Shown in pieces: positions 393-7,647 of a DNA stretch of 7,647 nucleotides; positions within the stretch are counted from its first letter, which is position 1, and each line of letters opens with the position of its first letter. Source of the stretch: a virus (lineage: Duplodnaviria > Heunggongvirae > Uroviricota > Caudoviricetes); the IMG/VR virus record IMGVR_UViG_2671180755_000005; one strand, given 5' to 3'. The translations under genes and the position numbers were made by a program. Under the pieces are notes generated by a model. That model did no database searches, was not told the origin of the DNA, and saw only the letters and a list, made by a program, of their open reading frames with translations.

Positions 393-1031
393 TTAAATAT
401 CTTGTTGAATTTTAAAGCATACTCCCAATATGCAAGATAGATCATCCAGCATAATTGAAGGGTAGCGAGGATTCGTGGGGACTAAAAGAATATCCGGCCC
501 TTCTATCTCCAGTTTGCGAATGACAGGCGTTGTGGTCCCTTTGGGTAAGGCAAGGACAATATTTCCTGGTTGTACGATTCGATCGGGATCAACAAAAACT
601 GTTGAACCATTTGGGATGGAAACTCCACCACCAGATGTCGACATACTGTCACTCTCTAGAACAACAGCAAAGGTATTGGCCGGGATTTCTCCGACAAGCT
701 GCACACAAGAGGTTATTGAGGAATTTTTCATATAATCACTCCAGCTTGCTGCCTGCTGAAGTGATAGTAGCGGAACCGTTTTTATCGGCGGTAAAGATAG
801 ATCAAGCGAATCACCTGTATTTAACTCTCCTCCATTAAGAAGCCAATTTTCGTTTACTTTCAATATCTTTGCCAGTGAACTTATGTAACGCGAGGACGGC
901 GCTCCTCCACCGTTCATCCATTGACTTACGGAGCCTTTTGATGCGCCAGTGGCATTGACAAGGTCTTTGCCTTTCAAGTTTAGCGCATGCATACGTTGGG
1001 TTATGCGTTCAGATATTGTTTGCTTGTTCAT
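393..1031 (-). CDS. cI: cI-like prophage repressor (N-terminal HTH, C-terminal S24 LexA-type autopeptidase domain)
   Basis: Complete 212-aa ORF. N-terminal HTH-like segment (LKGKDLVNATGASKGSVSQW), C-terminal S24 features including a Ser motif (ESDSMS) and a downstream Lys (VIRKLE). Divergent from the cro-like gene across an operator-bearing intergenic region. The ATG has no SD and abuts the operator, consistent with a leaderless PRM-type transcript. Confidence 0.9.
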   Translation of the reverse strand: MNKQTISERITQRMHALNLKGKDLVNATGASKGSVSQWMNGGGAPSSRYISSLAKILKVNENWLLNGGELNTGDSLDLSLPPIKTVPLLSLQQAASWSDYMKNSSITSCVQLVGEIPANTFAVVLESDSMSTSGGGVSIPNGSTVFVDPDRIVQPGNIVLALPKGTTTPVIRKLEIEGPDILLVPTNPRYPSIMLDDLSCILGVCFKIQQDI

Positions 1032-2886: not shown

Positions 2887-3340
2887 ACAGCAAATCCGTC
2901 TGGTGTGCCGTCAGTGCATGGACCGCTGCCGGGCGGGTGAAACGTGGCCCCCGGACCTGGCTGAGTTTGTTGCGCTGATTTCGGAGAGTGGGGCAAATCC
3001 ATTTGGTCTTACGGTGGATGCCGTGATGGAAGAGTACCGGCGCTGGCGCAATGAATCCTGGCGATACGACGGGAGTGATAAATACCCGTGGCCACAGCCT
3101 GTGCTGTACCACATCTGCCTCGAAATGCGTACCAGAGGGATTGAGCGCCAGATGACGCAAGGTGAGTTAAAACGACTTGCGGAACGGCAACTGACGAAAT
3201 GGGCAAAGCATGTTGGTAACGGGATGAGTGTTCCGCCAGTGCGACGACAACTGGAAGGGGCGAAACACCCGCAAGGGCCAACGCCAATTGAACGGCTGAA
3301 ACAGGAATACGAACGCCGGAAGGCAGCTGGTTTTATTTGA
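2678..3340 (+). CDS. Lambda P-like replication protein (helicase loader)
   Basis: 220-aa ORF. Recalled similarity to lambda P: ETWPPDLAEFVALI versus RPFLPSPGQFVAWC, KYPWPQPVLYHICLEMRTRGIERQMTQGELKRLAERQL versus SYPWKSNAHYWLVTNLYQNMRANALTDAELRRKAADEL. ATG at 2678 has the same CAAGGGGGG SD-like motif as the ydaT-like gene. Alternative in-frame starts at 2798 and 2879 have weaker SDs. Confidence 0.75.
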   Translation: MQHQVARHHGQFRKSGLHANSGNVTTDLSATETAWKLWVLMGEVYSNRWTQKNGAAPSKLWIAQIGAMTEQQIRLVCRQCMDRCRAGETWPPDLAEFVALISESGANPFGLTVDAVMEEYRRWRNESWRYDGSDKYPWPQPVLYHICLEMRTRGIERQMTQGELKRLAERQLTKWAKHVGNGMSVPPVRRQLEGAKHPQGPTPIERLKQEYERRKAAGFI

Positions 3341-3373
3341 ATCTGAGAAACGATTTTGTCGGAGGAAATATTA

Positions 3374-4090
3374 ATGGAAACCGTATTTGACGCACTGAAA
3401 GCACTGAAAAAAGCCTCTTCACAGGTAGTGGCATCGCGCCTTGGAATCAGCCGCGAAGATGCTGTCAACGAACTGTGGAAACTGAAGCGCCGTGGTGAAG
3501 CGGATAACAAGGGGTCGATGTGGTGGCTGACTCAGACTGGTGAAAGTGAACCAGTGTCACCGGTACCGAAAGTGACAGCGCAAATGCTGACTGAGGCGAT
3601 TGAACATCATGGCCCACAAACGGCGGATGAGCTGGCACTGATGTTCGGGATTACCTCCCGCCGGGCGAATTCATCACTGGCCATGGCAATCAGCAAAGGG
3701 CGTCTGATTCGCGTGAATCAGGGCGGTAAATTTCGGTACTGCATACCGGGCGCTGATTTACCGGCAGAGCCGAAAGCCGCATCCATAACGGAAACGGATG
3801 GTAAAGCCTTTCCTCAGCCAGCAGGTGTTGCGTTACCAGTCGGGGAAGCGGAAACACAGGAAGAAATAAAAACTGAAAGTGTGGCGGTCACAGTGCAGTC
3901 ACAGCCGTCGTTCACCAGAAAGCATCCGGATGGTCTGATTTTACCATCGCTGCATGTGGCTAACCGCGAGCTGCGCCGGGCAAAAGGTCAGGTTCAGAAG
4001 TGGGAGCGAGTCTGCGCCGCGCTGCGGGAGCTGAACAAGTGCCGGGATATTCTCCGGGATATTACCGCCACCAGAGAACAGCAGCGGTGA
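3374..4090 (+). CDS. Hypothetical protein with two N-terminal winged-helix-like repeats and a basic, coiled-coil-like C-terminus
   Basis: ATG at 3374 with GGAGG 8 nt upstream; the ORF-track start at 3356 is a TTG with no SD. 238 aa. The two repeat segments begin around residues 1 and 70. Occupies the position that ren holds in lambda. Confidence 0.8.
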
Positions 4091-4122
4091 GTGGGTGGAA
4101 GACGTGGTGCCGGGCGGAAATC

Positions 4123-4404
4123 ATGATACTCCGGCAGTGTGCGGGAACGATGAAGGTAAAAAGCGTTGGCGCACTTATCGGACGAACTGAAGCGGCAGTG
4201 AGAACGAAGGCACGGGAGCTGGGCATCAGCATGATGTTACGTGGTGATTTTCACCCGTCGGCAAAATATTCTCAGCGTGATATTGAGCTGGCGCGGCAAC
4301 TGCATCAGAGAGGCATGCAAAGAAGGGAAATTGCCAGAAAATTAGGCATGCCGCTGCGCATAGTGAATAACTACGTTTATTTCGACAGGAGGGTGTCTGC
4401 GTGA
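4123..4404 (+). CDS. Small hypothetical protein with two HTH-like segments
   Basis: Open frame 4000-4404. ATG at 4123 chosen as start. An alternative GTG at 4087 overlaps the upstream stop as GTGA, suggesting coupling. Neither has a clear SD, so the start is uncertain. HTH-like segments: GALIGRTEAAVRTKARELGIS and MQRREIARKLGMPLRIV. Confidence 0.6.
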   Translation: MILRQCAGTMKVKSVGALIGRTEAAVRTKARELGISMMLRGDFHPSAKYSQRDIELARQLHQRGMQRREIARKLGMPLRIVNNYVYFDRRVSA

Positions 4405-4628
4405 AAATCCTGTATCAGGATTACGGCCCGGTGGGGCAGGTGGTTATCAGCAGTACTGTAATGGAGTTTCGGAAGCATAACCGTGTGGTGGATGCTGTGC
4501 TGTTAACCTGTCCGGGGATATCGGCGAGTCGTGCAGGTGTGTTTATTATGAAGACGAAATTATATGGCAGTAAGGCGTGGATAAAGAAGGCGTATCGTGT
4601 AGCGTTGCAGGAGGTTAACAGTGAGTGA
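4401..4628 (+). CDS. Small hypothetical protein (75 aa)
   Basis: GTG at 4401 with AGGAGG 8 nt upstream. Start overlaps the upstream stop as GTGA (4401-4404). Confidence 0.65.
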   Translation: MKILYQDYGPVGQVVISSTVMEFRKHNRVVDAVLLTCPGISASRAGVFIMKTKLYGSKAWIKKAYRVALQEVNSE

Positions 4629-4932
4629 AATTAAAGAAATGCCGGTAGTTCGTGACGGATATGGCTACTGGACACATCCTGAATATGAAAAATTCTGTGA
4701 TGGTCGGGAATATATTTCAACGGAAGAGTTTAACGCCTGGATGGAGGAAAATAATCTTCAATACGTCCTCTGCTTCAGAGATGAAGGATGTGCTGACCTT
4801 GATGCGTGTGATGCTGATATTTCTGCATGGGAACCGGAACGACCAGAGGGCGATGGCTGGTTTATTGGTTCCATTCATGATACGGAAGATGGCCCGGTTT
4901 GTGTCTGGTTGCGAAATAAGGCTGAAGCATAA
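4621..4932 (+). CDS. Acidic, Cys-containing hypothetical protein (103 aa)
   Basis: GTG at 4621 with AGGAGG 7 nt upstream, overlapping the upstream gene by 8 nt. About 25 Asp/Glu against about 8 Lys/Arg, plus five Cys. Confidence 0.7.
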   Translation: MSEIKEMPVVRDGYGYWTHPEYEKFCDGREYISTEEFNAWMEENNLQYVLCFRDEGCADLDACDADISAWEPERPEGDGWFIGSIHDTEDGPVCVWLRNKAEA

Positions 4933-5036
4933 AGGCGATAAACCAACTAACAACTAAATACTGAAGATTTAAATCAGAAACGATTTTTATTAAATCCTTA
5001 ACCGGAGGGATTCCTGCACCCTCAGAACATCAGGAG

Positions 5037-5054
5037 GCCGCCCGAAAGGGCGGT
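5037..5054 (+). other. GNRA-tetraloop hairpin (CCGCCC-GAAA-GGGCGG) between an AGGAGG motif (5032-5037) and the ATG at 5060
   Basis: 6-7 bp GC stem with GAAA loop. No U-tract follows on either strand, so not a canonical intrinsic terminator. Confidence 0.4.
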
Positions 5055-5059
5055 AAGAA

Positions 5060-5278
5060 ATGAAACATTATTTAGAAAAAAATTACCCACGAAAGAGCAG
5101 AACAACAGAGTTTCTGTTTTTCATTCTGTTTATAGTGTTGATGATACCGATATCCCCGCTATTACTGGTCTGGATAATTGGAAGGACATTTGAACCAGTT
5201 ATTGAGCTATATACCGATGTGACATGGGAATCATTCAGCGCACTGCACAATAAAATTAATCCGTATAAGGAAAACTGA
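5060..5278 (+). CDS. Small membrane protein (72 aa, one predicted TM helix), AT-rich accessory gene
   Basis: Complete ORF with hydrophobic segment FLFFILFIVLMIPISPLLLVWIIG. Its AT content is clearly higher than the flanking genes. Stop TGA at 5276-5278 sits next to the ATG of the following gene. Confidence 0.55.
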   Translation: MKHYLEKNYPRKSRTTEFLFFILFIVLMIPISPLLLVWIIGRTFEPVIELYTDVTWESFSALHNKINPYKEN

Positions 5279-5279
5279 T

Positions 5280-5837
5280 ATGAGCACTATTACCAGAGAA
5301 CGCGCGGAGATTAAATCATACATCACAGGCTTCCTGAGCGACTCGGCGCACGATAACAAGTCTTCAGACAGCCTGCTGGCTAATGTGTTTCGTATCGCGC
5401 TGGCATCACTGGAAGCAGAGCCGATAGCAATGGTAGTGCCTGATGAAATGGATTTGCTTACCTGCCATCTCGACGGTGTAACTAAAACATATGCTGATGG
5501 CTGGAACGCCTGCCGCGTCGCCATGCTTCAGGCCGGAAACTTTCGGGAAAATAAGAATTCGTCAACCAACAATTTTCGGGAAATCTCGGAAACGTCAACC
5601 AGATCTCCGATAACTCTGGATGGCTGGATAAGCTGTACTGAGCGAATGCCTGAAAAGAGCCAGAACGTGCTTATTTCGATGAATATCGATAGCGAGGCTG
5701 GGCCATTAATATATTCCGCACGCTATCTCGGAGGCACGTTCCGGCGCGGAGGTATAGCAGTTAGTCCGGGTAATGATCTTAGGCAAGCAACCCACTGGAT
5801 GTCGCTACCAGAACCGCCGCAGGAGGTGAATCAATGA
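5280..5837 (+). CDS. DUF551-like phage protein
   Basis: 185-aa ORF with AAGGAAAA upstream of ATG 5280. C-terminal DGWISCTERMPE ... THWMSLPEPPQ matches the DUF551 signature as I recall it. Confidence 0.75.
   Translation: MSTITRERAEIKSYITGFLSDSAHDNKSSDSLLANVFRIALASLEAEPIAMVVPDEMDLLTCHLDGVTKTYADGWNACRVAMLQAGNFRENKNSSTNNFREISETSTRSPITLDGWISCTERMPEKSQNVLISMNIDSEAGPLIYSARYLGGTFRRGGIAVSPGNDLRQATHWMSLPEPPQEVNQ
5538..5600 (+). repeat. Imperfect 31-bp tandem direct repeat inside the DUF551-like gene
   Basis: AACTTTCGGGAAAATAAGAATTCGTCAACCA (5538-5568) versus AATTTTCGGGAAATCTCGGAAACGTCAACCA (5570-5600), 23 of 31 identical, encoding NFRENKNSSTN / NFREISETSTR. Confidence 0.6.
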
Positions 5838-5917
5838 CCTGGCCTGAAGCATTCACAACGGTAGGAATTGCGATGGCGGTGGCGCTGGTGGTGTATTCGA
5901 TTTGCCGCTGGGGATAA
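5834..5917 (+). CDS. Candidate 27-aa hydrophobic small protein (MTWPEAFTTVGIAMAVALVVYSICRWG)
   Basis: ATG at 5834 with AGGAGGTG 7 nt upstream, forming an ATGA overlap with the DUF551-like stop. Single TM-like segment. Below the ORF-track size cutoff. Confidence 0.35.
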   Translation: MTWPEAFTTVGIAMAVALVVYSICRWG

Positions 5918-5924
5918 AAACGGT

Positions 5925-5952
5925 TTGCGGGAAAAGGATAGTTAAGTAGAAT
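5925..5952 (+). promoter_or_regulatory. Candidate promoter of the hok-like mRNA (-35 TTGCGG 5925-5930, -10 TAGAAT 5947-5952)
   Basis: -10 is a 5/6 match to TATAAT with a 16-bp spacer. The predicted start around 5958-5960 coincides with the 5' element GCGGGTGCTTGAGG. Confidence 0.4.
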
Positions 5953-6070
5953 TGCTGCGGGTGCTTGAGGCTATCTGCCTCGGGCATGAACACCAACGGC
6001 AGATAGAGAAAAGCCCCAGTTAACATTACGCGTCCTGCAAGACGCTTAACATTAATCTGAGGCTCAATCC

Positions 6071-6202
6071 ATGCTGAACACATGTAGGTTAGCCTCTTAC
6101 GTGCCGAAAGGAATGGTAACGAGGAAAGACCTCTGCGAGGTGCGAATCCGAACCGGTCAGACGGAGGTCGCTGTCTTCGTAGACTACGAATCTGAGAAGT
6201 AA
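6071..6202 (+). pseudogene. hok: hok/gef-family type I toxin reading frame with in-frame loss of the transmembrane segment
   Basis: 43-codon ORF MLNTCRLASYVPKG-M-VTRKDLCEVRIRTGQTEVAVFVDYESEK. The tail matches the Gef/HokC periplasmic tail (recalled as ...VTRKDLCEVHIRTGQTEVAVFTAYESE) and the MLNTC start matches the MokC-type leader frame, but the roughly 23-codon hydrophobic segment is missing. Conserved 5' (5957-5970) and 3' (6252-6266) complementary RNA elements flank it. Confidence 0.6.
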
Positions 6203-6321
6203 GAGACCAGGCGGGGGAGTAATCTCCCGCCACCTCTGATGTGTCAGGCATCCTCAACGCACCCGCGCTTTACCATACTGAAAATGCTGTTTGAATGTTC
6301 ATCTCTGAAAGAGGACTATGA

Positions 6322-6666
6322 ATGAAAAAGGTATTGATTGCAGCACTTATTTCCGGTGTGTCTTTTGGCGCTTTTGCACAGCAGGGTGGTTTCCAGGGGC
6401 CAGAAGCAGAGCGTTCAACAGTAGCGCAGGCAAAAGAACTGAAGGATGATGCATGGGTTATCCTTGAAGGGAGCATCGTTAAAAAAGTGGGTGATGAACG
6501 TTATGAGTTTCGTGACAATAGCGGGACAATTGTCACGGATATTGATGACAGCGTATGGGCCGGGCAGAATGTTTCTCCGAAAGACAAAGTAAGAATTGAG
6601 GGTGAAATTGATAAAGACCTGAGGAGTGTTGAAGTTGATGTAAAGGCACTGAAATTATTAAAGTAA
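6322..6666 (+). CDS. YgiW/YdeI (BOF) family periplasmic OB-fold protein, prophage accessory gene
   Basis: 114-aa ORF with signal peptide MKKVLIAALISGVSFGAFA, AAAGAGGA SD 7 nt upstream, and family-typical YEFRDNSGTI...VRIEGEIDKD segment. Own terminator downstream. Confidence 0.9.
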   Translation: MKKVLIAALISGVSFGAFAQQGGFQGPEAERSTVAQAKELKDDAWVILEGSIVKKVGDERYEFRDNSGTIVTDIDDSVWAGQNVSPKDKVRIEGEIDKDLRSVEVDVKALKLLK

Positions 6667-6683
6667 CCGCCCCTGCTTGTTAA

Positions 6684-6711
6684 GCCCGTCTTACTGACGG
6701 GTTTTCTGTTT
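6684..6711 (+). terminator. Rho-independent terminator after the YgiW-like gene
   Basis: Stem CCCGTC (6685-6690) / GACGGG (6696-6701), loop TTACT, followed by TTTTCTGTTT (6702-6711). Confidence 0.7.
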
Positions 6712-6787
6712 GTACATTCCGGCGTATTGCCTTACAATTCGCGCAGTCAGCCTGAACAACTGACACCTGCTGTCACCGGAGAATCCG

Positions 6788-7060
6788 ATGACACAACACA
6801 TAAAATCCCACAATTCTGAAGCCGACCCGGAAATTAAGCAGGGGAGGCGTTTTCGTGCGCCTCAGTATGGCTGGTTTCACTATCTGTTCTGTACGATCGA
6901 TGAGGCAGATATGCTTCAAGAGGCGTATCTGCGTCGCGGTGTCCGTGTGGAGCGGAGTCTGAACGCTGATCGTCTGACCTGGACCGTTTCTGTATATCTT
7001 CCTGTTCGTGCACATCTGCCACGGACACATGCCTGCTACCGTCAGCGCGTCTGGAGGTAA
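6788..7060 (+). CDS. Hypothetical protein (90 aa)
   Basis: ATG at 6788 with GGAG 7 nt upstream. Stop TAA at 7058-7060 is immediately followed by the start of the next gene. Confidence 0.55.
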   Translation: MTQHIKSHNSEADPEIKQGRRFRAPQYGWFHYLFCTIDEADMLQEAYLRRGVRVERSLNADRLTWTVSVYLPVRAHLPRTHACYRQRVWR

Positions 7061-7061
7061 T

Positions 7062-7647
7062 GTGCGGGTATTACTTCGACCTGTTCTGGTTCCGGAACTC
7101 GGGCTGGTGGTCCTTAAGCCCGGTCGTGAATCATTGCCAGTTTTTCATCGCGGCAGGGTGCTGGTGGAGCCGGAACCGAAAAACATGCGGGCGCTGCCAT
7201 CTGGAGCGGTTCCTGCTGTTCGCCAGCCGCTGGCGGAAGATAAATCACTGCTGCCATTTTTCAGCGATGAGCGGGTGATTCGTGCAGCTGGCGGCGCTGG
7301 TGCACTGTCTGACTGGTTATTACGTCACGTGAAATCCTGCCAGTGGCCACACGGCGATTATCATCACAGCGAAACCGTTATTCACAGTTACGGTGCTGGC
7401 GCAATGGTGTTGTGCTGGCACTGCGACAACCAGCTGCGCGACCAGACCTCCGAATCACTTGAGCAACTTACTCAACAAAATCTGACAGCCTGGATGATTG
7501 ACGTCATACGCCATGTAATGAATGGCACGCAGGAGCGGGAATTATCGCTGGCTGAATTATCCTGGTGGGCAGTCTGCAATCAGGTGGTGGACGCATTACC
7601 TGAGGCAGTATCGCGTCGCTCTCTGGGATTACCGGCGGAAAAAATCC
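7062..7647 (+). CDS. DUF968-like (YdfU-like) Cys/His-rich phage protein, partial (runs off the right edge)
   Basis: Frame open from 6978 to the window end. GTG at 7062 preceded by GGAGG (7053-7057); alternative ATG at 7029. Contains CQWPHGDYHH and CWHCDN motifs recalled from Qin-prophage YdfU-type proteins. The listed ORF 7060-7278 is in another frame and Cys/Trp-rich, so it looks spurious. Confidence 0.7.
   Translation, partial: MRVLLRPVLVPELGLVVLKPGRESLPVFHRGRVLVEPEPKNMRALPSGAVPAVRQPLAEDKSLLPFFSDERVIRAAGGAGALSDWLLRHVKSCQWPHGDYHHSETVIHSYGAGAMVLCWHCDNQLRDQTSESLEQLTQQNLTAWMIDVIRHVMNGTQERELSLAELSWWAVCNQVVDALPEAVSRRSLGLPAEKI

Follow-up and report, generated by a model that had tools for sequence, protein, structure and literature searches.

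The missing membrane segment of a hokW/sokW-type locus in an Escherichia coli O157 lambdoid prophage is most probably an assembly gap

By its sequence, the stretch 5925-6270 of the 7,647-nt DNA analysed here in full (hereafter the window) is a type I toxin-antitoxin locus of the hokW/sokW type, carried by an Sp11-like lambdoid prophage of E. coli O157:H7/NM. As written in the window, its toxin frame lacks the membrane-spanning segment. We estimate a probability of about 0.93 that this missing segment is an unassembled two-N gap in a short-read draft, with the locus of the real genome being of the intact hokW/sokW type. The locus is thus most probably intact in the isolate itself, as judged from comparison with the deposited record and with related copies.

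An exact match to the YgiW-like protein of the window was found in a single contig, LGBA01000127.1 of the draft assembly GCA_001281775.1, and the window corresponds to this entire contig. The public record has NN at 6112-6113, where the window text has AA, and reads ...GCCGAAAGGNNTGGTAACG... around the gap; further excerpts of the same stretch are gccgaaaggNNtggtaacg and gtgccgaaaggNNtggtaacgagg. Comparison of the window with positions 3322-7647 of the record (4326 bases) revealed N,N versus A,A at 6112-6113 as the sole differences. Because NN stands in the deposited record and AA in the window only, the junction is an unresolved join of two assembled pieces, the left one ending in ...GCCGAAAGG and the right one starting with TGGTAACG..., and positions 6112-6113 are a strandless assembly-gap placeholder that stands for 83 nt. 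From the comparison with the record, N seems to have been written as A during preparation of the window. Besides the gap, the window differs from the best complete genome at three positions; these remaining differences, one of which lies at 6624, are C, T and G, none of them A, so that further N-to-A sites in the window are unlikely. Contig LGBA01000127.1 is reported in 2 samples.

Alignment with the O157:H7 copy and with 933W showed that intact copies carry 83 nt (CAAGGAG...GACGGCAC) in place of the AA of the window, a net difference of 81 nt. The window is identical to the O157:H7 copy on either side of 6112-6113, and hundreds of complete O157 genomes have both gap flanks unchanged and carry the 83 nt between them. 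The 83 nt contain the presumed sok -35 (TTGCCT, - strand), the hok Shine-Dalgarno sequence (SD) AAGGAG, the hok ATG and Hok residues 1 to 22, which form the transmembrane helix.

These alignments do not agree with the first-pass annotation, which had described a clean in-frame deletion of about 69 bp leaving an SD and an ATG directly before VTRK. What the alignment shows is 83 nt replaced by 2 nt, and those two are NN in the record. The GAAAGG taken for an SD is upstream mok sequence, and the ATG at 6113-6115 consists of an A plus a TG across the junction; the native hok SD and ATG both lie inside the missing stretch and not before VTRK. The ATG at 6113-6115, the SD-ATG-VTRK appearance and the in-frame continuity all result from the substitution of A for N. 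The window text does give a toxin frame without a hydrophobic segment, but the N-terminal part of the toxin falls in the NN gap and is unreadable in the contig.

Searches for the junction itself came back empty. No match was found to a 42-mer spanning it (6093-6134) in 5426 complete E. coli genomes or in phage records, nor to a 29-mer in GTDB genomes or JGI metagenomes. The product of the 43-aa ORF has no exact entry on record, and no truncated Hok was present among the matches of this ORF in 5.8 billion proteins, where all 120 of the 120 best protein relatives were 62-73 aa long with a full PF01848 domain. The Mok forms among these relatives are 70 aa long, and are named MokC/HokC in some sources. 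Likewise, for the 134-aa antisense ORF at 5853-6257, the same 5.8 billion proteins included no antisense product spanning the junction. The proposal of a detoxified hok locus kept in the prophage is therefore not supported, given that its junction is absent from all collections searched and is NN in the source record.

The isolate behind GCA_001281775.1 is an E. coli O157:H7/NM strain from the study of Ferdous et al. 2015, sequenced from Nextera XT libraries as MiSeq 2x250 reads and assembled de novo with CLC Genomics Workbench 7.0.3 using a word size picked for maximal N50 (PMC4609726). The 83-mer was found in 4694 of the 5426 complete E. coli genomes, mostly under the annotation hokD, and occurs at 5-6 sites in several of the O157-type (STEC) genomes among the top matches and at up to 9 sites per genome. 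Using the O157:H7 genome PV15-279 as a proxy for the paralogs of the isolate itself, we observed that the Sp11-like and hokD-like copies of this one genome have a block of 138 nt in common without a single mismatch. Of this block, the contig holds the first 27 nt (6085-6111) and the last 28 nt (6114-6141), and the middle 83 nt are absent.

At a repeat longer than the word size, a de Bruijn assembler lets the unique flanks reach about k-1 nt into the repeat, while the inside of the repeat ends up as a short node of its own and is discarded, and read pairs re-join the flanks with N's, as is the behaviour of CLC. Overhangs of 27 and 28 nt on a 138-nt repeat fit such a breakage. The CLC assembler would have broken at the exact repeat common to the hok paralogs, keeping about k-1 nt on each side and discarding the repeat interior. 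The two pieces would then have been re-joined by read pairs as NN without the 83 nt ever being assembled, and display of NN as AA would have fabricated both the ATG and the in-frame junction.

The assignment to the hok/gef family was upheld by Rfam RF01794, Pfam HOK_GEF and annotated hokW homologues, all of which agree. RF01794 matched 5959-6128 on the + strand with 100.6 bits (gathering score 59, E = 1.5e-22), aligning every helix but the last, which extends into the gap; the same model gave 113.5 bits on intact copies. The family, named 'sok antitoxin', matches the sense strand of the hok mRNA from the tac element through the hok start codon. Since the match lies on the + strand, RF01794 models the 5' part of the hok mRNA (tac/ucb stem, Sok-target hairpin, SDmok/dcb stem and hok start) and not solely Sok. 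Its name and strand are easily misread, as the 71-nt SokW gene sits on the opposite strand within 5959-6128.

The ORF at 6071-6202 encodes 43 aa as described in the first-pass annotation, starting with MLNTC and ending in a Hok/Gef-like C-terminal tail. It matched HOK_GEF with 51.6 bits (E = 6.8e-14) over profile positions 18-42 of 42, the N-terminal part lying in the NN gap, whereas copies with identical flanks matched positions 1-42 with 81 bits. Furthermore, maximal Kyte-Doolittle hydropathy over 15 residues was 0.37 in the window ORF, which has the gap inside it, versus 3.29 in intact Hok. By BLAST, the locus is present in 4735 of 5426 complete E. coli genomes, where it is annotated 'Hok/Gef family protein', and also in Stx phages.

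The named RNA elements of a hok mRNA were confirmed at the coordinates first proposed for them, the exception to a complete set being the sok promoter, whose -35 straddles the gap edge. On the + strand, a TAGAAT at 5947-5952, 6-7 nt before the start of the Rfam model at 5959, is the probable -10 of the hok mRNA promoter, a function suggested by its position and conservation: the Sp11-like, 933W and hokD-like copies all have it unchanged but diverge farther upstream. The tac element at the 5' end of the mRNA (GCGGGTGCTTGAGG, 5957-5970) and the fold-back inhibition element fbi (CCTCAACGCACCCGC, 6252-6266) are complementary over 14 and 15 nt, respectively, with one bulged base, as found in an inverted-repeat search in which one segment paired 8/8. 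In agreement with this, the minimum free energy (MFE) structure of the 5959-6270 RNA joins the 5' and 3' ends at -130.2 kcal/mol (z = -5.9), and 0 of 100 shuffled sequences were as stable. Both the window RNA (z = -5.9) and the intact RNA (z = -6.3) have tac paired with fbi in their MFE and centroid structures.

Downstream of tac, the 9-bp repeat CTATCTGCC (5971-5979) / GGCAGATAG (5998-6006) is the core of a 20-nt inverted repeat. It is enclosed by the tac/ucb stem (GGGUGCUU / AAGCCCC) of a 5' hairpin at 5959-6018 (+ strand) that follows the RF01794 consensus over model positions 1-59. The ucb element, at about 6011-6018 (+ strand), pairs with tac in the 3'-processed RNA; in the full-length MFE structures of window and intact RNA, GCCCCAG is instead paired with the mok SD CUGAGGC, in agreement with the published model (PMC9841398). 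The mok start and leader occupy 6059-6111 of the + strand, with the SD GAGG at 6059-6062, the ATG at 6071-6073 and the dcb element GCCTC at 6092-6096. The leader, MLNTCRLASYVPKG, matches that of annotated MokW without a difference, and the pairing of SDmok with dcb is included in the RF01794 consensus structure. Beyond the gap, 6114-6202 of the + strand holds the 3' part of the hok/mok frame, from the last two bases of codon 23 through codons 24-51 (VTRKDLCEVRIRTGQTEVAVFVDYESEK) to the TAA stop at 6200-6202. Two further + strand elements are paired in the MFE structures of both window and intact RNA, namely a GC-rich hairpin formed by an inverted repeat 3' of the hok stop (6210-6231) and a 3' element (6239-6251) complementary to the mok start region at 6071-6083.

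The antisense antitoxin RNA gene sokW was placed at 6009-6079 of the - strand by transferring the misc_RNA annotation of 933W sokW through alignment. The predicted SokW is 71 nt long, with a long terminal hairpin of -30 kcal/mol (z = -5.0). Its promoter -10, TAACCT, lies at 6086-6091 (- strand), 7 nt upstream of the annotated sokW 5' end, and the promoter-less construct of Takada et al. 2021 (primers YO-421/YO-422) replaces exactly the TAGGTTA at the sokW -10 (PMC8621323). The presumed -35, TTGCCT in intact copies, spans the gap edge, and the ATTCCT seen in the window comes solely from N shown as A. Generic sigma-70 promoter and terminator scans of 5850-6400 gave no prediction at threshold, so that the promoters are placed here by homology and by the published mutagenesis of the sokW -10.

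A real, private loss-of-function deletion that removed the hok SD, start and transmembrane region, leaving a pseudogene for which the assembler missed two bases at the junction, is an improbable alternative to the assembly gap. The size of the gap speaks for it, as the scaffolder estimated merely 2 nt, which for a true distance of 83 nt is a sizeable error and counts against the gap reading. The same contig also has another private change, 6624 G (S101R), absent from the 5426 complete genomes. Inactivated chromosomal hok loci, moreover, are reportedly well known in E. coli K-12 from the 1999 work of Pedersen and Gerdes. However, a private junction would consist of unique k-mers trivially spanned by 250-nt reads, leaving no reason for N's, and the missing piece is the interior of a multi-copy exact repeat with overhangs of 27 and 28 nt that look like k-1. 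Furthermore, a comparable junction occurs in no other sequence of any collection searched. We consider it slightly less probable still, and very unlikely, that the isolate truly lacks the sok -35, the SD and start of hok and the transmembrane helix with all mRNA folding elements kept, in which case a non-toxic hok RNA could still bind Sok from 5-6 paralogous loci. If the deletion were real, the toxin would certainly be dead, since the toxicity of R1 Hok is already abolished by altered start codons and by single substitutions in the transmembrane segment.

Three points on the origin of the junction follow. A private deletion would agree with the empty junction searches, but the NN in the record explains that emptiness better. 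An in-silico or engineered edit, suggested by a codon-aware look (GGC to GGA, CTG to ATG), is rejected in view of the source contig. If slippage between the direct repeats GGCA at either end had caused a deletion, 80 nt would be lost and GGCAC left, from which the window differs.

Far less probable than a simple deletion is a detoxified hok maintained for an RNA function, whether as a Sok sponge, as a regulatory RNA or for a soluble 43-aa Mok-Hok' peptide. In its favour, tac, ucb, sokT, SDmok, dcb and fbi do all lie outside the missing stretch, with an RNA that still folds back. Nevertheless, the junction, the ATG and the frame continuity are products of N-to-A substitution, the allele is a singleton with no evidence of retention or selection, and its flanks are base-for-base identical to those of intact copies. 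Such an allele would also have lost its sok -35, a misfit with a preserved regulatory module. Finally, a chance resemblance to hok is dismissed by the E values (Rfam, 1.5e-22; Pfam, 6.8e-14) and by flanks 97-100% identical to annotated hokW and Hok/Gef loci.

The closest known system is hokW/mokW/sokW of the Stx2 phage 933W and of Sakai Sp5, with about 97% nucleotide identity across the locus. The mok/hok coding sequence there is identical to that of the window outside the gap, the positions of tac, fbi and sok are shared, and the locus is likewise flanked by a DUF551 gene on its upstream side and a YgiW-like gene on its downstream side. The present copy differs from 933W at four positions within 5925-6270 and belongs to an Sp11-like, non-Stx lambdoid prophage, unlike the Stx2 phage 933W. 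Copies of the hokD (relF) type from Qin-like prophages share the identical 138-nt block, which comprises the sok promoter, the hok SD and start and the transmembrane-coding part, and their tac/ucb/sokT region is nearly identical to that of the Sp11-like copy. Within one O157:H7 genome, the hokD-like copy (NZ_AP018488.1, 1163334-1164016) and the Sp11-like copy are thus nearly identical from the -10 through the transmembrane-coding part; they differ in the mok start region (ATGAACGGCAAATC vs ATGCTGAACACATG), and the hokD-like copy has several substitutions in the Hok C terminus and other upstream and downstream flanks. Given this near-identity, the several paralogs encode almost identical Sok RNAs, and these RNAs are likely to cross-talk, as judged from the alignments.

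More distant is hokC (gef)/mokC/sokC of K-12, which likewise has an in-frame Mok leader with an MLNTC start and a Hok/Gef C-terminal tail. In contrast to the prophage copies, it is a chromosomal non-prophage locus, and its sequence would be that of a paralog of lower identity. The hok/sok (parB) system of plasmid R1 follows the same regulatory logic and serves post-segregational killing by the plasmid, not a prophage; HokW is 44% identical to R1 Hok (PMC8621323).

The logic of hok/sok, with tac/fbi, ucb, dcb, mok-coupled translation and antisense Sok, is established for the family (PMC9841398), and the computed structures fit its operation in this copy, for which we infer it. The stable full-length hok mRNA would be inactive through tac/fbi pairing, with ucb covering the mok SD. 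Slow 3' trimming would then refold the mRNA so that the tac/ucb and SDmok/dcb stems form, and translation of mok, which hok translation requires, would drive synthesis of the 51-aa membrane toxin Hok. Short-lived SokW would pair over the mok start, and RNase III would cleave the duplex. For Sp5 hokW/sokW, toxicity, neutralisation by sokW and partial dependence on RNase III and Hfq have been shown, and so has a contribution to the lysis of cells and the release of phage following mitomycin C (PMC8621323).

The window as a whole represents the part of an Sp11-like O157:H7 lambdoid prophage that serves immunity, replication and accessory functions, with genes for a cI-like repressor, Cro, YdaT, DnaT-like and P replication proteins, DUF1627, DUF551, Hok, a YgiW-like BOF protein and DUF968. 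As proposed, the hok locus lies in the accessory block of the prophage, directly upstream of the YgiW-like (BOF) gene. In this latter gene (6322-6666), a G for C at 6624 changes the protein by S101R, and a 51-mer around the position had no match in the 5426 complete E. coli genomes; the G may reflect either a true private SNP or an error of the consensus, the prophage region being multi-copy.

On the upstream side, the hok promoter adjoins an unannotated 27-aa hydrophobic ORF at 5834-5917 (+ strand; MTWPEAFTTVGIAMAVALVVYSICRWG), with a maximal hydropathy of 2.46 and an ATG overlapping the DUF551 stop (ATGA). This ORF had no Pfam match; it is kept with few substitutions in 933W, while unrelated sequence stands upstream of the hokD-like copy instead, and its product may be a small membrane protein. 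A further observation concerns the repressor gene at 393-1031 (- strand). In FDAARGOS_293, the closest complete genome, which has no differences from the window across this stretch, RefSeq calls only 393-731, 112 aa, as a 'LexA family protein'. The ORF reaching to 1031 encodes 212 aa with HTH_3 and Peptidase_S24 domains, like a complete cI-type repressor, and the RefSeq start codon is probably mis-called.

A two-N scaffold gap shown as A's can thus give rise to a convincing "clean in-frame deletion" and a new start codon in a gene with a multi-copy repeat at its core. Windows taken from draft assemblies ought to retain their N's, since N written as A can fabricate codons and junctions, and private indels in repeated prophage genes call for a comparison with the deposited record and with the reads ahead of any interpretation. 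As for the biology, hok/sok loci of O157 lambdoid prophages are already known, having been annotated since the 933W genome and characterised experimentally, and the biological weight of one more copy of this known type is small.
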